From the IMG/VR virus record IMGVR_UViG_3300013901_000001: DNA of 64,000 bases; one strand, 5' to 3'. The DNA comes from a virus. Made by a program: the position numbers and the translations under genes. Of this stretch, positions 3,893 to 34,747 are shown one piece after another (within the stretch, counting starts at the first letter, position 1; every line of letters starts with the position of its first letter). The notes below the pieces were generated by a model, which saw only the letters and a program-made list of their open reading frames with translations, was not told the origin of the DNA and ran no database searches.

Positions 3893-4120
3893 ATGAGAGT
3901 TATAAGTCAGGACGGAACACTTGATATTCCATATGAAGGTCATATATTCGGTGCAAGCACGGAAGAAAATTGCATAATAGCGGTACATTTTAAAAACCCT
4001 AGCCCATGTATGGATTGGTATTCTACGCAAGAAAAAGCACTTAAGGCTCTTAAAATGTTGCGCGAAGCGCGTAAAAACGGATGCGTAGTATTTCAGTTTT
4101 CAAAGGAAGATGAGGTGTGA
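3893..4120 (+). CDS. hypothetical protein
   Basis: AAAGGAG 7 nt upstream of ATG 3893. Confidence 0.5.
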   Translation: MRVISQDGTLDIPYEGHIFGASTEENCIIAVHFKNPSPCMDWYSTQEKALKALKMLREARKNGCVVFQFSKEDEV

Positions 4121-4122
4121 AA

Positions 4123-4479
4123 ATGAAGATTATTGAGGGAAAAGAAAAAGAATACAAGGAATGGTACGACAAAAACAGCGATTCTTATAGCAGAGCGTGT
4201 TTTACATTCGCTGAAAGATGGGCGGGACTTTTGGAAGAAAAAATAGACAACTCTTCCGATTGTCCGATGAAGGTAATTGTCGATAACGCAAAACAATTAA
4301 GTGATGAAGCAAACACAGAAAGAATCACGGGATTTATGTATGGTTGTTCTGTTAATATTCTATCAAGAGTGTGGAAATACGGTGATGAATTAAGAATGTG
4401 GCACAATGGAAAATACAATTATCAGGGCGAAGGAACTGTAAACCCGGCTATTCTTACGGTTGGTGGCAAAGATGATTAA
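4123..4479 (+). CDS. hypothetical protein
   Basis: GAGGTG upstream of ATG 4123; overlaps previous stop. Confidence 0.5.
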   Translation: MKIIEGKEKEYKEWYDKNSDSYSRACFTFAERWAGLLEEKIDNSSDCPMKVIVDNAKQLSDEANTERITGFMYGCSVNILSRVWKYGDELRMWHNGKYNYQGEGTVNPAILTVGGKDD

Positions 4480-5176
4480 TCTGAAATGCTTATCTTCCGG
4501 AAGTAAAGGAAATTGCTATCTTCTGGAAGCTGATAACGGAGAAGTCCTTATCATTGATGCCGGAATACCAATCATGGATATTAAGCGTGGTCTGAACTGG
4601 AATGTGAGAAGTGTAGTCGGTGCGGTTATTACGCACCGGCACACAGACCATAGTAAAAGCATTGATGATTTACGGCACATGGGAATAAGAGTTGTTGCAC
4701 CGTATGAATCCGGAAACGTAAAGTCCATGAGTTTTTCACTGGGAAGTTTTAGAATACAGGCTTTTGATGTTTCGCACAACGGCTGTTGGAATAACGGATT
4801 TCTGATTAAGACTTCGGACGGACAGAAAATCTTGTATATGACCGATTTGGAGTACTGCCCGTATTCTTTCCGGAAGCAGAGCGTAGACCATATGCTTATC
4901 GAGTGCAATTACATGAAATCACTGGTTGACACGGACGCTCCGAATTACGTCCACAAGATTCGAGGTCACTGTGAACTGGAAACGACAAAAGGAATTGTCA
5001 AGGAGAATGCGACAGATAGCCTTGTAAACGTTATATTGTGCCATTTAGGACGTGATACTTGCGAAGAGGACAAAGTTATCGAAGAAGTGAAAAAGATCGT
5101 TCCTAGAGTCATTGTGGACGTTGCGAAAGGCGGCAAGGAATGGATTTTAAGAAAGGTCGGTGAGTGTCCGTTTTGA
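4472..5176 (+). CDS. metallo-beta-lactamase-fold hydrolase (possible recombination nuclease)
   Basis: HRHTDHS = HxHxDH motif; sits between the RecT-like gene and SSB. Confidence 0.7.
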   Translation: MINLKCLSSGSKGNCYLLEADNGEVLIIDAGIPIMDIKRGLNWNVRSVVGAVITHRHTDHSKSIDDLRHMGIRVVAPYESGNVKSMSFSLGSFRIQAFDVSHNGCWNNGFLIKTSDGQKILYMTDLEYCPYSFRKQSVDHMLIECNYMKSLVDTDAPNYVHKIRGHCELETTKGIVKENATDSLVNVILCHLGRDTCEEDKVIEEVKKIVPRVIVDVAKGGKEWILRKVGECPF

Positions 5177-5789: not shown

Positions 5790-6176
5790 ATGAAGAAAAA
5801 GGAACTTGCATATACCATGCTTCAAGGTGGTGCATCCATTAATGAAGTGGCCGAAAAGACAGGATTCAGCAAAGTTTACGTTAGAGAAATAAGAAGAAGC
5901 GCCATTCCCAAAATTACAATTTCGGATTATGAAGACAAAATTTGTTCCATGAGGGAAGACGGAAAATCATATGAAGAAATAGGCAGAGAAATCGGATATA
6001 GTTCATCGACAATCAAAAACTTCTTGCAGAAGGTTAGACAGGAAAGGAAGATCGTAGAAAACGCCGAGGAAGAAAGGGATCTTACATACGCTTCCAATAA
6101 ACCGCCAAGAAGCTATAGGGTTTCCTATCAGGGGAAACGGTATCTTTGTGAAAACGAGTTTTATATTCCGAGATAG
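5790..6176 (+). CDS. helix-turn-helix DNA-binding protein
   Basis: Two HTH-like segments (INEVAEKTGFSKVYV, YEEIGREIGYSSSTI); AAGGAG upstream. Confidence 0.5.
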   Translation: MKKKELAYTMLQGGASINEVAEKTGFSKVYVREIRRSAIPKITISDYEDKICSMREDGKSYEEIGREIGYSSSTIKNFLQKVRQERKIVENAEEERDLTYASNKPPRSYRVSYQGKRYLCENEFYIPR

Positions 6177-6452
6177 GAGGGTGCTTCCGTGAATCAGATG
6201 AACATATTTGATTTAATTAGAAAACCTATACAGATTACAAAGCCGATTCGTCTCATAGAATTATTTGCCGGGTATGGAAGCCAATCAATGGCATTGAAAA
6301 GAATTGGTGCAAACTTTGAGCATTATAGGGTTGTGGAATTTGATAAGTTTGCCATTGCAAGCTATAACGCAGTGCACGGAACAAATTTTCAAGCATTGGA
6401 CATTACAAAAATTCATGCAAATGATTTGAACATCTGTGATACAGAATCATTC

Positions 6453-6474
6453 ACTTACTTACTTACTTACTTAC
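6453..6474 (+). repeat. tetranucleotide repeat (ACTT)5+AC inside the methyltransferase, just before motif IV
   Basis: Read directly; removing one unit gives ...SFTYLLTYSFPCTDLS... in one frame. Confidence 0.95.
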
Positions 6475-6950
6475 TCGTTTCCTTGCACAGATCTTTCCGT
6501 AGCTGGGAAACGAGCCGGAATGAGTAAAGAAAGTGGAACAAGATCTGGACTTCTGTGGGAAGTGGAAAGAATACTTACTGAAATCAAAGAAGAAAAAGAA
6601 GAACTTCCACAGATTTTATTTATGGAGAATGTACCACAAGTGCATAGTTCGGATAATATGCCGGATTTTAGAAAATGGATAGATTTTCTTGAAAGCCTTG
6701 GTTACAAAAATTATTATCAGGACCTTAACGCAAAAAATTATGGAGTGGCGCAAAACCGTGAACGATGTTTTATGTTTTCGTTTCTTGGAGAATATAATTA
6801 CCATTTTCCACAGCCGTTTCCTCTTGAAAAGAAGTTAAAGGATTATTTGGAAGATAATGTTGATGAAAAGTATTACATCAATAATGAAAAATCCAAAAAG
6901 TTGATAAAGCAGCTTATTGACAACGGAACACTTCCTCAACACAATCTTGA

Positions 6951-7005
6951 GAGCAGAGCAGAGCAGAGCAGAGCAGAGCAGAGCAGAGCAGAGCAGAGCA
7001 GAGCA
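6951..7005 (+). repeat. pentanucleotide repeat (GAGCA)11 inside the methyltransferase
   Basis: Read directly; encodes (EQSRA)n in all three frames, so there is no stop in any frame. Confidence 0.95.
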
Positions 7006-7294
7006 AACTTGCGTTGACGGAACAATCTGCAATCCACAAAGAAGAAAGATTGCGAACTGTATCATGGCAAGAGACTACGGAATCTCAACACAGTCACAGA
7101 CAGGAAACCTTGTTGTTAAAAGGAATGTCAAGTAATAAATACGATCCATATGCAGAAAAAGCAGATATTTCAAGAACCATATGCGCTAGGGATTATAAGG
7201 GCTTAAATAATTTTGGACAGAATGGAGTAATTGAATGGAAATCATAGGAAGTATATACACGGGAGTTTCAGACGGATATCAGCACGGAATCTTA

Positions 7295-7304
7295 GGGGGG
7301 GGGG
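7295..7304 (+). repeat. G10 homopolymer at a frame break in the methyltransferase
   Basis: G9 would join ...HGILGGG to ISRCVKAENHDLGVV. Confidence 0.9.
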
Positions 7305-7418
7305 ATTTCCCGTTGTGTCAAAGCTGAAAATCATGATTTAGGAGTAGTTATGGCAGATGTGAATGTTTTAGGTAGTCTTGAATCGAAATTTGAGAGTACC
7401 AGTAGAATTTATGGAGTA

Positions 7419-7427
7419 GGGGGGGGG
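7419..7427 (+). repeat. G9 homopolymer at a frame break in the methyltransferase
   Basis: G10 would join ...SRIYGVGGG to VSPTLSTMQGGNQ. Confidence 0.9.
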
Positions 7428-7989
7428 TGAGTCCTACGTTAAGCACAATGCAAGGTGGTAATCAAAAACCGAAAATACTTGAAGTAAAACAGCTAGGATT
7501 TATGGAAAACGGAACTGGAAAACATCAGTCCAATACTGTATACGATGAAAACTCATTATCCCCTAGCATAACAACGGTTGAAAATGGTGGTACGCAACAG
7601 ATTAAAATATGCGAAAGCCAAATAGTTGCCATGCGTGGAAGAAATCCAGATAATCCGTCCGACAGAACTGCAGGAAGTCCAACGGAACAAAGACTTGAAT
7701 TAAATAAACATGAAACAAGTAATTGCATTACAAGTGTTCAAAAAGACAATATGGTTATGGAAAATCCCACATATCGCATAAGAAAACTTACCCCGAGAGA
7801 ATGCGGTAGACTTATGGATGTATCAGACGAAGATATTTCCAAAATGGAAAAGGTAAATAGCAACACGCAGCTATACAAACAGTTTGGAAATTCTATTGTA
7901 GTAGGTGTTATGTGCGAGATGTTTAAAAATTTAAACATAAATCAATAAGACCGGACAGTTCCGGTTTGCATAGTTTGGAGGAAAAGAAA

Positions 7990-28706: not shown

Positions 28707-28937
28707 TTAAAACCGTGATGCTTGAAATCTCCAACGCTTGCGATTGTCTGTGCCGTGTTCGGATATTTCAAAAAAAAAAACCGTGAAATACTTGTCGAGC
28801 AGATCGTCCGGACACTCTAAACAGTTTATTGCGCCCTGGATCTCGTTCTTGTTGCTGTTCTGATAGATCCCGTCAATCTTCACGCCTTTTTCTTCTTGTA
28901 ATTGCTCTAATTTCTTTAGCATTTCGTATTTTGTCAT
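28707..28937 (-). CDS. hypothetical protein containing a T11 tract
   Basis: AAAGGAAG then ATG (28937); MTKYEMLKKLEQLQEE...; homopolymer at 28770-28780. Confidence 0.45.
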   Translation of the reverse strand: MTKYEMLKKLEQLQEEKGVKIDGIYQNSNKNEIQGAINCLECPDDLLDKYFTVFFFEISEHGTDNRKRWRFQASRF

Positions 28938-29830: not shown

Positions 29831-29910
29831 GACGGGAAACCGCCCTTTTTCTTTGCGATTCTGGACGATAACGCTATATAGAATGTTATATAACAAGATA
29901 TATAATAAGC

Positions 29911-30005
29911 TATATAATAATTCATATATGGTAATTCTTATATAGTAATTCTGTATGATATTTACTATATAATAATTCTGTGTTATAATTACTATATAGT
30001 AATTC
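29911..30005. repeat. iteron array TATATA(A/G)TAATTC x4 at ~27-bp spacing
   Basis: Copies at 29911, 29939, 29966, 29993, plus degenerate half-copies between them. Confidence 0.8.
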
Positions 30006-30036
30006 ATATATAATAATCACAACAGGAGGTTTTACA

Positions 30037-30839: not shown

Positions 30840-30859
30840 AACACTACTGATATACCTAA

Positions 30860-30982
30860 ACAATCTCAACGTAAATAAAGCCAATAAACTATCGTTTAGC
30901 CAATACATTGTTTTTATAACACTCTCAACGTAAATACTACTAATAACTTACCGTGTAGCCAATAACTTATATTTATAACACC
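30860..30982. repeat. two ~59-nt tandem direct repeats (CTCAACGTAAATA...TAGCCAATA...TTTATAACAC)
   Basis: Units start at 30865 and 30924; roughly three quarters identical by eye. Confidence 0.7.
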
Positions 30983-32111: not shown

Positions 32112-32338
32112 AAATAGGGTATGGTCTATTTTTACGCATGAAAAATTGTGCAATATGACTAACGAATCCGGAATGACTCCTTGACCACCAGAAGCACCCG
32201 GGAGGGGGTTACACGGGAACCGCCGAAACCGCCCACTTAGCCCCTCAACCACCCCAAAAATCAAAAAGCCACTTATCCAAAACGGATAAACAAAGCAAGG
32301 ATAATCCAATTCTTAAAAATTTTTTAAAAACAAAAAAA

Positions 32339-32348
32339 GGGGGGGGGG
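32339..32348. repeat. G10 homopolymer preceded by A7, intergenic
   Basis: Read directly. Confidence 0.9.
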
Positions 32349-32428: not shown

Positions 32429-32587
32429 TTATTTCCCAATGCTTTTTAAATAAGCATCCAGGGATTTATCCAATATTTTACTCATTGGTATGCTACTTTC
32501 ATCGGAATACTCCTTTAATCTCCGGTGTATTTCCTTGTCAAGAGAACTTGAAATGAAAATACGGTTTTTTAATCTTCTGTCAGCCAT
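32429..32587 (-). CDS. ribbon-helix-helix protein (52 aa), divergent from the recombinase
   Basis: AGGAGGTGATTAC then ATG; NRIFISSSLDKEIHRRLKEYSDESSIPMSKILDKSLDAYL. Confidence 0.55.
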   Translation of the reverse strand: MADRRLKNRIFISSSLDKEIHRRLKEYSDESSIPMSKILDKSLDAYLKSIGK

Positions 32588-33982: not shown

Positions 33983-34747
33983 ATGATCTTGAATTGCATA
34001 AACTGTGGTGCACCGATTGATAATACAAAAACAAAATGCCCGTATTGCGACACTCCATATAAGTTAAATGGATTTGCTGGTGAGATTTCAGAGGAAAGTA
34101 ACTGCGGAGTGTTGAATATAGGCGGTCATTTCTACGATGACTATTTGTCCAGTGTAGAGGTAGGGGATTACGGATACATGGGATATAGGGATGCCACAGG
34201 AAGGTCGATAAGAGAAGTAAGAAACATTCACAGAACGTTACGTTGGAGACTTACTAACATGATGATAAATATTTTGTTTCTTGTGGATTCAATAGAAGAC
34301 GCTGCATTAGAAACATACATAACTGAAAATGTCGTGAAAGATAAACGAGGGATTTTTGACATTGATTACGAATATGCGATGATAAGCATTAATAACATAA
34401 AAGTGTGGTTTTGCGCTCCAGAAGCTGAAAGATGCATTTCTCCAATATTGTTTTGTGATTGTGTAGTTGTAGATGTAAATACGGCTAAAGGAATTTTGGA
34501 AAAAGAAAATCTGCAAAGAATGCGTAAAACGATACCGTTTTATGACAGATCTTGTTTTTATAAGACAATGATTGACGAATGGGAGAGGAAGAACGTGAAA
34601 AAGAGTATTATTGACCGTTGGAAGAAGCATGGAGAATTTACAAGGCGTTGCATGATAGCCGGATTTTCAAAAGATTTTATTCCTACACGGTTTGAATATG
34701 CAATTACAGGCACTAAACTTCATAAGTTAATCTATGGGAGAAACTAA
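33983..34747 (+). CDS. zinc-ribbon N-terminal hypothetical protein
   Basis: CINCGAP..CPYCDTPY; 254 aa. Confidence 0.5.
   Translation: MILNCINCGAPIDNTKTKCPYCDTPYKLNGFAGEISEESNCGVLNIGGHFYDDYLSSVEVGDYGYMGYRDATGRSIREVRNIHRTLRWRLTNMMINILFLVDSIEDAALETYITENVVKDKRGIFDIDYEYAMISINNIKVWFCAPEAERCISPILFCDCVVVDVNTAKGILEKENLQRMRKTIPFYDRSCFYKTMIDEWERKNVKKSIIDRWKKHGEFTRRCMIAGFSKDFIPTRFEYAITGTKLHKLIYGRN

Follow-up and report, generated by a model that had tools for sequence, protein, structure and literature searches.

Phase-variable methyltransferases are known as devices of bacteria. In the Type III mod phasevarions of Haemophilus, Neisseria and Moraxella, the coding sequence of the methyltransferase contains a simple repeat with a unit length not divisible by three; slippage puts the ORF in or out of frame, and close relatives differ in their number of units. 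These N6-adenine enzymes are chromosomally encoded, occur in Gram-negative pathogens, have a single long tract each and control a regulon that has been demonstrated. The NgoAV hsdS gene encodes a Type I specificity subunit which is truncated at a poly-G tract and has two states. On the phage side, the Bacillus subtilis phage enzymes (SPR, phi3T, rho11s and H2) combine one catalytic core with tandem TRDs in a variable region; rho11s is a single 503-aa ORF without hypermutable repeats. Work of the Trautner laboratory reportedly linked such multispecific phage enzymes with self-protection against restriction. A split in the variable region is found in M.AquI, a two-subunit C5 enzyme which is cyanobacterial, the monospecific partner of an R-M system and without repeats; it is established that C5 enzymes can be split and that their fragments can complement each other (PMC3404938). 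Phage contingency loci have been proposed only recently, for coliphage homopolymers: A-tracts in agt, the DNA-glucosylation gene of phage T2, toggle sensitivity between TgvAB and McrBC (PMC12633550). The loci of T2/T4, and the poly-G tracts in the receptor-binding genes of Fletchervirus, are single short homopolymers of lytic coliphages or Campylobacter phages, and their reversible mutation gives mixed progeny.

The locus described here lies in the window, which is the whole stretch of 64,000 nucleotides that was analysed (IMG/VR record IMGVR_UViG_3300013901_000001). The proteins of the window include terminase, portal, major head, tape-measure and integrase-like proteins, and the gene is phage-encoded; the phage carries both integrase and repressor-like genes. 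The gene covers 1.76 kb (6189–7948, plus strand, as are all features below) and its neighbours are Tad4, SSB, a helicase and a second methyltransferase, an early replication/anti-defence module. Its family comprises 309 relatives in IMG/VR and at least 120 metagenome contigs. Relatives are found on viral contigs of 55–67 kb; relatives are also embedded in long Lachnospiraceae chromosome contigs and are therefore prophages.

The frame-repaired protein matches PF00145 (E 1.8e-56). On the dcm profile (TIGR00675) alpha scores 140 bits (cut-off 100.65) and covers profile positions 2–213, while beta covers positions 221–329; M.MpeI and M.HhaI are the best solved relatives of the enzyme. The C5 motifs are present in order: FAGYGS (6264–6281), SFPC (6475–6486), ENV (6625–6633), QNRER (6751–6765), RIRKLTPRECGRLM (from 7775) and GNS (7886–7894). 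They are split among frames in the window and lie in frame within the alpha and beta ORFs of L228. About six TRD-like modules share the pattern ...T/C-L/I...G..V/I-V/I, and a pair of neighbouring modules aligns with a pair of neighbouring rho11s TRDs plus motifs IX–X at 36–37% identity; tblastn matches were obtained to the Bacillus phage enzymes rho11s and H2 (36% for H2). The predicted enzyme is thus a Type II-like multispecific (multi-TRD, rho11s/H2-like) C5 methyltransferase and not a Type III mod enzyme; its different TRDs probably confer different specificities. The NCBIfam family NF045953 (C5 N-terminal subunit) has a similar architecture, but the curated family is not matched (23.8 bits, cut-off 93). 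The initial annotation had drawn a parallel to the phasevarions; this applies to the switching mechanism and is limited to it, because the enzyme is not a Type III mod gene. A full-text literature search found no such switch described in a phage C5 methyltransferase of Gram-positive hosts, in agreement with the initial annotation, which knew of no case in a temperate phage of Gram-positives.

Four long repeats are located within the gene, each coincides with a change of frame, and all four are in the OFF setting in the window. SSR1, (ACTT)5.75, is found at 6453–6475 (Tandem Repeats Finder: period 4, 5.8 perfect copies); its placement between motif I and the PC motif had been noted before, with an end at 6474 that is one base short. 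The ACTT 23-mer has one exact occurrence in the window, and 0.00 are expected from 100 dinucleotide-preserving shuffles. For the whole window, the repeat count (8, against a mean of 11 expected from mononucleotide shuffles) is uninformative because A/T homopolymers dominate; the non-randomness belongs to the specific tracts.

The alpha ORF has, as read from the sequence, a Shine-Dalgarno AGGAGG (6175–6180) and a GTG start at 6189 (together 6175–6191), and is listed as an ORF of 6189–6527. Segment A (6189–6452, frame 0) comprises the N-terminus with motif I and matches PF00145. SSR1 comes after motif I, encodes TYLLTY of motif IV and ends directly before the Pro-Cys codons (6481–6486). Segment B (6475–6949, frame 1) contains motif IV SFPC, ENV, QNRER and the pre-TRD region (...VDEKYY...), which shows homology to rho11s. 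With the 5.75 units of the window, the GTG 6189 frame terminates at the stop 6525–6527, as the initial annotation had deduced for five units and as translation confirms. The SFPCTDLSVAGKRAG frame is +1 relative to the GTG 6189 frame in the window translation, so one ACTT unit fewer joins both into ...DTESFTYLLTYSFPCTDLSVAGKRAG...; this is the motif IV context that had been predicted for four units, and it is found naturally in the metagenome contig L220/L228. The in-frame allele has 4.75 units, and SSR1 is the predicted master on/off tract of alpha. A reset of SSR1 to four units in the window would restore the alpha ORF only, because beta is out of frame at both poly-G tracts; nor is this natively split gene a single ORF. 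The switch proposed at ACTT is real, but it is only one of four hypermutable tracts, and those of AGAGC (6950–7005), G10 (7295–7304) and G9 (7419–7427) had been missed.

Natural alleles were compared in near-identical and related genomes. L220/L228 has 0 substitutions relative to the window across 3.0–4.6 kb and differs only at the four repeats: ACTT 5.75 to 4.75 units (−4 nt), AGAGC 11.2 to 8.2 units (−15 nt), G10 to G9, and G9 to G7. No reading frame is broken in this contig, which encodes an intact alpha of 269 aa and a beta of 236 aa. The near-identical genomes were located by exact-protein look-up; scanning IMG/VR for exact copies of window-like flanks around SSR1 gave no match. Ten species-level contigs (95–100% identity) contain ACTT at 3.75, 4.75 and 5.75 units, and every indel within the gene falls at one of the four tracts. 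In IMG/VR, SSR1 has 4.75 units in 45 cases, 5.75 in three (window included) and 3.75 in one. In the metagenomes, among the matches listed, 107 alleles have 4.75 units, seven have 5.75 and two have 6.75; this tally is biased because the search pattern was unable to match 3.75-unit alleles, which are known from the other sets. Family-wide, and again among the matches listed, 152 contigs have 4.75 units, and 12 (window excluded) have 3.75, 5.75 or 6.75, all 12 of them frameshifted. OFF alleles of SSR1 lie within lineages of differing flanks, hence they represent independent events. Differences at the tracts are also seen within clusters that are at least 99% identical in the alpha core (GACA 7.8–16.8, G6–G9, ACTT 3.75/4.75/5.75). 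The initial annotation had proposed to tally four-, five- and six-unit alleles, and held that finding five units alone across relatives would speak against a switch; the opposite is found, with alleles of 3.75, 4.75, 5.75 and 6.75 units, including among near-identical genomes. Since a tetranucleotide tract of five units is short and 92% of the alleles are ON (among the matches listed), SSR1 may switch slowly. The differences among assembled consensus sequences suggest switching within one population; poly-G lengths from short-read assemblies carry some error.

SSR2, (AGAGC)11.2 at 6950–7005, would determine which of three frames supplies the C-terminal tail of alpha. In the window it is set to the ‘null’ frame, which ends at the stop TGA 7015–7017; 12.2 units would give TRD-C, and 10.2 units the linker and TRD-D. 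The TRD-C reading (7004–7135, frame 2: TCVDGTICNPQRRKIANCIMARDYGISTQSQTGNLVVKRNVK, stop TAA 7133–7135) has the same frame in the intact single-ORF relative L079. The linker and TRD-D reading (7014–7247, frame 0: ...ISRTICARDYKGLNNFGQNGVIEWKS, stop TAG 7245–7247) is in the frame used by the intact relatives L002, L034 and L075; it overlaps TRD-C in the +1 frame, and its TTG at 7014 overlaps the TGA of the null frame. The layout of null, +1 (TRD-C, ~45 codons) and +2 (linker and TRD-D, ~75 codons) is found in 107 of 123 loci, and all three states occur across loci (C in 71, D in 32 and null in 16). The units of SSR2 family-wide are 4, 5, 7 or 8 nt long (AGAGC and GACA among them) and never 3 or 6, and homologous tract positions recur across lineages with differing unit sequences. 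Within the window's own species SSR2 has 5.2, 8.2 or 11.2 units, always in the null frame, so switching of the alpha tail is not seen in that lineage. The frame changes at ~7114 (A4) and ~7240 (A3) were considered as homopolymer errors or decay, which was rejected: the one at 7114 is the end of the TRD-C reading, where it overlaps the D reading, and the one at 7240 is the conserved alpha/beta junction.

In this family the gene is, on the reading of its ORFs, natively split into alpha (motifs I–VIII) and beta (TRDs and motifs IX–X), which may assemble into one enzyme. The junction (7224–7237) consists of GGAG (7224–7227), a 7-nt spacer and the beta ATG (7235), which is in the −1 frame and precedes the D-reading stop by 8 nt. 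The junction GGAGTRATTGAATGGAA is kept in 107 of 156 loci with varied downstream modules; L082 and L083, relatives that lack the SSRs, have it as well. In beta, segment E (7235–7294, frame 2) translates as MEIIGSIYTGVSDGYQHGIL, the first half of TRD-E. The first poly-G tract (G10, 7295–7304) lies within TRD-E and is followed directly by ISRCVKAENH; the in-frame length is G9, so the window is OFF. Segment F (7305–7418, frame 0) comprises the remaining TRD-E and the first half of TRD-F, with a putative internal start MADVN (ATG 7350; AGGAG 7340–7344 upstream); an ORF of 198 aa is called from MADVN in L230. The second poly-G tract (G9, 7419–7427) lies within TRD-F, immediately upstream of VSPTLSTMQGG; the frame is kept with G7 or G10, so the window is OFF here too. 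Segment G (7427–7948, frame 2) contains the remaining TRD-F, two more TRD-like modules, motif IX and motif X, and matches the TRDs and motifs IX–X of rho11s (37% identity, E 1e-28). The alpha/beta C5 subunits of Streptococcus phage MM1 were rejected as an example of the same architecture, since that beta is nested within a full-length alpha.

The poly-G tracts are in frame in 36–42% of the contigs, which is too near the 33% expected without selection to argue for selection toward ON. Complete alpha and beta are found together in only 2 of the 10 species-level contigs, and an uninterrupted single ORF in 4 of 80 IMG/VR relatives (ORF tracing); counting relatives as intact genes from one-frame tblastn HSPs was rejected, because the HSPs crossed stop codons. 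Either the enzyme is mostly off, or C-terminal pieces may be made from putative internal starts. A search for conserved restart codons downstream of the poly-G tracts found none that is general across lineages; candidates in the window are a GTG overlapping a TGA and the ATG within STMQGG, and restarts after the poly-G tracts are conjectural.

Concerning selection, repeats are found at 199 per 142 kb within the gene versus 22 per 435 kb in the flanks. Entropy at synonymous sites amounts to 0.27 bit for the six codons of the SSR1 tract, versus 1.04 bit for the next twelve codons, which indicates selection on the repeat itself. The D frame is open across TRD-C in 107 loci, against 0.2–5.5% expected from synonymous resamplings. 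All inter-tract segments are open and conserved between lineages that are ~75% identical in DNA, and non-repeat frameshifts in the alpha core are found in only one lineage among 80 relatives. At the level of sequence, the comparison demonstrates the anatomy of the gene, its hypermutability and the consequences for the frame, and shows that both the repeat and the dual-coding region are under selection.

We consider it probable that the ACTT tract is a slippage contingency locus, the master switch of a four-tract, two-ORF, multi-TRD methyltransferase, and that the mixed population hedges against restriction. Slipped-strand mispairing during replication of phage or prophage DNA would add or remove one 4-nt ACTT unit and shift the frame just before the catalytic cysteine, with 4.75 units ON and 3.75, 5.75 and 6.75 OFF. 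The second tract, which has units of 4 or 5 nt and stands at the end of the alpha core, would choose the alpha tail (none, TRD-C, or linker and TRD-D), and the poly-G tract in each of the first two beta TRDs would bring its module, and all that is translated through it, in or out of frame. As an outcome, the phage population would at all times contain genomes with and without cytosine methylation, probably also differing in the sequences that are methylated; the mixture would hedge between hosts with Type II restriction enzymes that are blocked by methylation and hosts with methylation-dependent (Type IV) systems. Bet-hedging of phage DNA methylation against restriction systems is the most likely function of the gene, and we infer that these systems are the selective agent behind the switching. 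A combinatorial specificity switch, in which SSR2 picks no TRD, TRD-C or TRD-D and the poly-G tracts add or drop beta TRDs via internal restarts, is proposed tentatively and may well not hold. If true, one genotype would give progeny with up to about nine cytosine-methylation repertoires and an unmethylated state, as a slippage-driven, phage-side counterpart to bacterial shufflon-like hsdS systems.

Other explanations were weighed against hedging by a contingency locus. The switch might act mainly in lysogens, where a prophage-borne phasevarion would alter the methylome and expression; this is compatible with the main explanation and rather unlikely as the chief role. It is favoured by the relatives which are prophages in Lachnospiraceae chromosome contigs, by the integrase and repressor-like genes, by a mechanism as in modA/modM (PMC1976455), and by PamA, an S. 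aureus prophage methyltransferase that alters the host phenotype (work cited in PMC13076061); however, the gene sits in an early replication/anti-defence module beside Tad4, SSB and helicase, and its homology is to multispecific phage enzymes, classically tied to self-protection against restriction. There is little likelihood that the gene is a decaying, dispensable pseudogene with neutral slippage at chance repeats and tracts without switching function. Decay predicts nonsense mutations, random indels and eroding repeats; instead, the segments between the tracts are open and conserved across lineages of only ~75% DNA identity, the 80 relatives include a single lineage with a non-repeat frameshift in the alpha core, all-ON alleles are present in the same species, synonymous sites within the repeat are conserved, the overlapping D frame is held open against the 0.2–5.5% expectation, and tracts built from different units are found again at homologous positions. 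These outweigh the breaks at four of four tracts in the window copy, the roughly neutral poly-G in-frame rate of one third and the few uninterrupted ORFs (4 of 80), all of which a pseudogene would also explain.

Tract-length differences that are merely artefacts of assembly or sequencing are very improbable: perfect tetranucleotide (19–27 nt) and pentanucleotide (26–56 nt) tracts fit well within short reads and are no known error hotspots, the length differences are whole units (4, 15, 30 nt), identical alleles are found across independent samples and assemblers (ENA and Logan contigs agree on the G10/G9 and G9/G7 pairs), and the remaining 3–4.6 kb are identical with zero other indels, even though homopolymers of 8–10 G are error-prone on several platforms and the relatives are all metagenome assemblies. 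Transcriptional slippage at poly-G and poly-A runs is possible in some bacteria and phages, and the alpha/beta junction is a conserved −1 overlap; the frames could thus be rejoined in expression, by such slippage or by ribosomal frameshifting, so that tract length in DNA would not be decisive. We give this very little credence, as neither ACTT nor the alpha/beta junction contains a slippery heptamer, repeats with units of four or five nucleotides are not known to act as recoding signals, the Shine-Dalgarno-like GGAG 7 nt upstream of the ATG is typical of a separate coupled ORF, and in-frame SSR1 alleles are the majority, which would be superfluous if expression corrected the frame.

On the preferred reading, a slippage contingency locus, Lachnospiraceae phages of a family common in human and animal guts would possess a multi-tract slippage switch in their own DNA-modification enzyme, with all-ON and all-OFF natural versions on otherwise identical genomes. 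This would offer a testable system for a temperate gut phage hedging between methylation-sensitive and methylation-dependent host defences, and a natural case in which one repeat selects among three functional frames and the coding sequences of two recognition domains overlap in different frames. For annotation it is also a warning: such genes will be labelled pseudogenes or broken into three to five pieces, which is what gene callers did here.

Compared with the mod phasevarions, the locus has the same kind of repeat inside the ORF, the same toggling of the frame and the same variation of allele counts between close relatives, but its enzyme is a multispecific, Type II-like C5-cytosine methyltransferase with four tracts, and it is borne by Lachnospiraceae phages. 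It resembles the Bacillus subtilis phage enzymes in being phage-encoded, with one catalytic core and tandem TRDs, and has the pre-TRD region ...VDEKYY... in common with rho11s; unlike rho11s, it has the alpha/beta split, about six TRD-like modules, and hypermutable tracts upstream of the catalytic motif, upstream of the first TRDs and within two of the TRDs. The split in the variable region is like that of M.AquI, here with overlapping ORFs (dcm positions 2–213 vs 221–329) that are predicted to assemble. With the phage contingency loci it shares reversibly mutating repeats and mixed progeny; those of T2/T4 and Fletchervirus are single homopolymers, whereas here a single methyltransferase gene, carried by gut Firmicutes phages of temperate type, combines tetranucleotide, pentanucleotide and poly-G tracts, one of which would select among three frames. 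Finally, as in NgoAV hsdS, a repeat frameshift alters the C-terminal recognition part and so, presumably, the specificity, rather than merely turning the enzyme off; here the enzyme is a C5 methyltransferase with three tail states and two alternative TRDs in overlapping frames.

The window is a phage, with genes for terminase, portal, major head, tape-measure, integrase-like and repressor-like proteins. Its C5 DNA methyltransferase gene (6189-7948, + strand) contains six frame changes; the protein joined from the open segments matches PF00145 (E 1.8e-56), and M.MpeI and M.HhaI are its nearest solved relatives. Four of the changes are located at long repeats: (ACTT)5.75 at 6453-6475, (AGAGC)11.2 at 6950-7005 (the second tract), G10 at 7295-7304 and G9 at 7419-7427. 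No long repeat marks the remaining two, near 7114 and 7240. Repeat density in the gene is about 28 times that of the flanks. About six short modules, patterned like target-recognising domains (TRDs), occupy the stretch from motif VIII (QNRER) to motif IX. In the C-terminal half, an alignment to the multispecific methyltransferase of Bacillus phage rho11s spans two adjacent TRDs and motifs IX-X (37% identity, E 1e-28), and phage H2 is matched as well; these alignments identify the enzyme as the multispecific phage type and not a Type III mod protein.

The first tract is a perfect period-4 array (Tandem Repeats Finder: ACTT x 5.8, + strand), and its 23-mer occurs once in the window, with 0 occurrences expected from dinucleotide-preserving shuffles. 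The array confirms the placement of a tetranucleotide repeat between motif I and Pro-Cys by the initial annotation. The ORF starting at GTG 6189, with AGGAGG upstream, carries motif I (FAGYGS), crosses the repeat and reaches a stop at 6525-6527, as had been described for five units. The frame one base ahead reads ...LTYSFPCTDLSVAGKRAG..., where the repeat encodes TYLLTY immediately before the catalytic Pro-Cys; frame reading bears out that one unit fewer fuses the two frames through this motif. The out-of-frame (OFF) products have 101 or 112 aa, and the next ORF begins past Pro-Cys and lacks motifs I and IV. As read here, OFF alleles cannot give an active enzyme, because the tract precedes the catalytic cysteine.

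Near-identical phage contigs were found by exact-protein look-up with two window ORFs as queries. ERZ808271 NODE_27 (67,359 bp) is identical to the window, all tract lengths included. ERZ808249 NODE_90 (67,353 bp) has 0 substitutions relative to the window over 3.0-4.6 kb, and the sole differences are ACTT 5.75 to 4.75, AGAGC 11.2 to 8.2, G10 to G9 and G9 to G7; its in-frame tract lengths are those predicted from the window beforehand. In this contig both alpha, the ORF with motifs I-VIII (269 aa), and beta, the ORF with the TRDs and motifs IX-X (236 aa, MEIIGS...NINQ), are intact. Both poly-G pairs (G10/G9 and G9/G7) are also seen in two short Logan contigs. Eight more same-species contigs (95-99% identity) have 3.75, 4.75 or 5.75 ACTT units and 5.2 AGAGC units; their first G tract measures 8-15 nt, with a terminal A or AG in some copies, and their second 7-9 nt, with one copy interrupted. 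Within the gene, all indels of the species-level contigs fall at the four tracts. GACA count (7.8-16.8; the unit of their second tract), G-tract lengths and ACTT count also vary within clusters from other lineages whose alpha cores are at least 99% identical. At the sequence level, we conclude that the four tracts are hypermutable, change by whole units alone and decide the reading frame. The initial reading of a phase-variable methyltransferase was right in its core, the switching ACTT alleles, and covered only a quarter of the system.

Across the family, the ACTT tract is found at identical codons in most lineages. The IMG/VR sequences (window included) comprise one allele of 3.75 units, 45 of 4.75, three of 5.75 and none of 6.75; the 116 metagenome contigs among the matches listed comprise 107 of 4.75, seven of 5.75 and two of 6.75, 3.75-unit alleles being undetectable by the search pattern used there. 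Thus relatives possess 3.75, 4.75, 5.75 and 6.75 units, and not the five-unit allele alone. Alleles other than 4.75 produce a frameshift precisely at the tract, and they arose independently, since the flanking sequences of their lineages differ. Lineages which encode the same or similar residues by other codons (e.g. YCYMMTY) have neither tract nor frameshift there. In 43 TYLLTY haplotypes, synonymous entropy averages 0.27 bit over the six codons of the tract and 1.04 bit over the next twelve, and the Thr codon is ACT in 42/43 and 43/43 cases inside the tract, mostly ACG or ACC directly downstream. By these measures of codon use, it is the ACTT repeat itself that is conserved.

Relatives are found in Lachnospiraceae MAGs such as Roseburia, and they are prophages, because some lie within contigs >100 kb or a complete chromosome. 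The best 80 of the 309 IMG/VR relatives, from contigs mostly 50-60 kb, were studied. A tblastn impression of many single-frame genes was rejected, as the HSPs passed through stop codons; by ORF tracing, only 4 of these 80 have an uninterrupted gene, and the usual form is two ORFs, alpha and beta. Alpha ends in ...G-V-I-E-W-K plus one to three residues, and beta starts at an ATG within GAATGGAA in the -1 frame, with GGAG 7 nt before. The junction GGAGTRATTGAATGGAA is present in 107/156 loci, with several different downstream modules, and also in two distant repeat-less relatives (L082, L083). The frame change at 7240 was considered as an error and rejected, as it is this conserved junction. Alpha covers positions 2-213 of the dcm profile and beta 221-329, and the two-subunit enzyme M.AquI is split at the same place (PMC3404938). 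The repeat-laden split form is judged to be derived, because both rho11s and the lemur-gut relative Dulem virus 39 encode the enzyme in one ORF that lacks these tracts. Three of the 80 (L029, L032, L050) have an 8-nt insertion (TGGCTGAC or TGGCTGAA) within motif I, at gene positions about 95-105, the sole non-repeat frameshift of the alpha core in this set.

Concerning the second tract, a fixed cyclic three-frame layout follows it in 107/123 loci with a repeat there. One frame is null (stop after ~2 codons), the next reads TRD-C (~45 codons, then stop), and the third (~75 codons) reads a linker overlapping TRD-C and then TRD-D, ending at the alpha/beta junction. At present 71 loci are in state C, 32 in D and 16 in null, and 4 are fused; C and D both occur inside one cluster at least 99% identical. 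Both readings are real protein, because uninterrupted relatives use them (TRD-C in L079; linker plus TRD-D in L002, L034 and L075). When the TRD-C peptide was resampled with synonymous codons, the overlapping frame stayed open in just 0.2-5.5% of trials; 41 lineages <90% identical in that region have it open, and being related they do not multiply as independent tests. This retention through divergence indicates, by codon resampling, selection on the overlapping frame. ACAG/GACA is the unit in 87 loci and AGAGC in 46, others having a 7-/8-mer, and a 3- or 6-nt repeat is found at this position in none of the loci examined. The window's own setting is null; an added unit would give TRD-C and a lost one TRD-D. 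A more distant relative, a Treponema MAG contig (L090), has the heptanucleotide (GAACAGA)12 at the same position (gene position 746), and L085-L087 and L093 possess poly-G tracts without an ACTT tract; repeats at these positions therefore reach beyond the Lachnospiraceae phage group.

Each poly-G tract lies inside a TRD (G10 in TRD-E, G9 in TRD-F), directly before a conserved x-S/C-P-T-L or ISRCV element, and encodes Gly-Gly(-Gly), with family lengths of 6-10. The in-frame fractions are 41/97 and 21/59, near one third, and out of frame the beta ORF ends early. A second start (MADVN, ATG 7350, preceded by AGGAG) could provide a beta without the first TRD; gene callers predict a 198-aa product from it in one relative (L230). 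Among ten species-level contigs, tracts downstream of ACTT tend to share its OFF setting: the first G tract is in frame in 0/4 with ACTT OFF versus 4/6 with ACTT ON, small numbers which fit relaxed selection behind a closed master switch.

The early module around the methyltransferase encodes a Tad4 Thoeris inhibitor, SSB, a helicase and a second DNA methyltransferase (N6/N4 type, PF01555, 11110-12063), located after the helicase and without long repeats. Tad4 (PF25186, E 2e-31) and an overlapping metallo-beta-lactamase-fold protein (4117-5176), the latter with a faint Anti-Pycsar Apyc1 match in the stored annotation, lie just 5' of SSB, an HTH protein and the methyltransferase, which makes this an anti-defence neighbourhood. 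Elsewhere, an intergenic A7G10 tract (32332-32348) directly precedes a tiny ORF, flanked by an RHH gene (minus strand, 32429-32587) and a serine recombinase (PF00239, 32714-33298). The tract ranges over A6-7 and G7-10 among eight near-identical contigs, which makes it a fifth hypermutable tract of the phage, and it could affect a promoter or ribosome-binding site. Downstream of the resolvase, gene calls in several near-identical contigs split a 254-aa gene (33983-34747) into 91 aa and a remainder, with a T2/T3 difference near the break (L236 and L240-L242 versus L238). An AT-rich nested tandem array (29868-30017, periods 12-41) and a 59-nt direct repeat (30859-30981, 2.1 copies) lie in a region of few ORFs and may be an origin/iteron or regulatory region. 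The longest A/T run in the window is A11 (28770-28780).

The TRDs of Bacillus phage multispecific enzymes, studied by the Trautner laboratory, reportedly confer different target sequences, and those found here would do likewise. Fragment complementation and two-subunit assembly are known for C5 enzymes, and alpha and beta would assemble as in such experiments and in M.AquI (PMC3404938). The benefit of switching would be bet-hedging between hosts whose restriction is methylation-sensitive and hosts whose restriction depends on methylation. A phasevarion role in the lysogen is possible and compatible with bet-hedging.

Repeat-driven methyltransferase switching is a classical feature of Type III mod genes and is also found in Type I and IIG systems. 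The phasevarion analogy drawn by the initial annotation fits the mechanism; the label extends no further, the enzyme being a multispecific C5 enzyme and not Type III mod. Both the multispecific C5 enzymes of phages and C5 enzymes in split form are already known. In open-access papers and bioRxiv we found no report of a phage C5 methyltransferase switched by a tetra- or pentanucleotide repeat, of several tracts combined in one such gene, or of a repeat selecting between two TRDs in overlapping frames; this covers phages of Gram-positive hosts, and the initial annotation likewise named no described case for their temperate phages. The locus is of high interest on three counts: it is common, nature provides unusually clean evidence of switching, and a three-frame TRD selector would be new if its function is confirmed. 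A 2025 preprint proposed phage contingency loci and mentions, as an earlier case, a poly-G run in a Bordetella phage methylase gene. A recent experimental parallel to the proposed bet-hedging comes from T2, where A-tracts in the glucosyltransferase gene agt toggle phage sensitivity between TgvAB and McrBC (PMC12633550).
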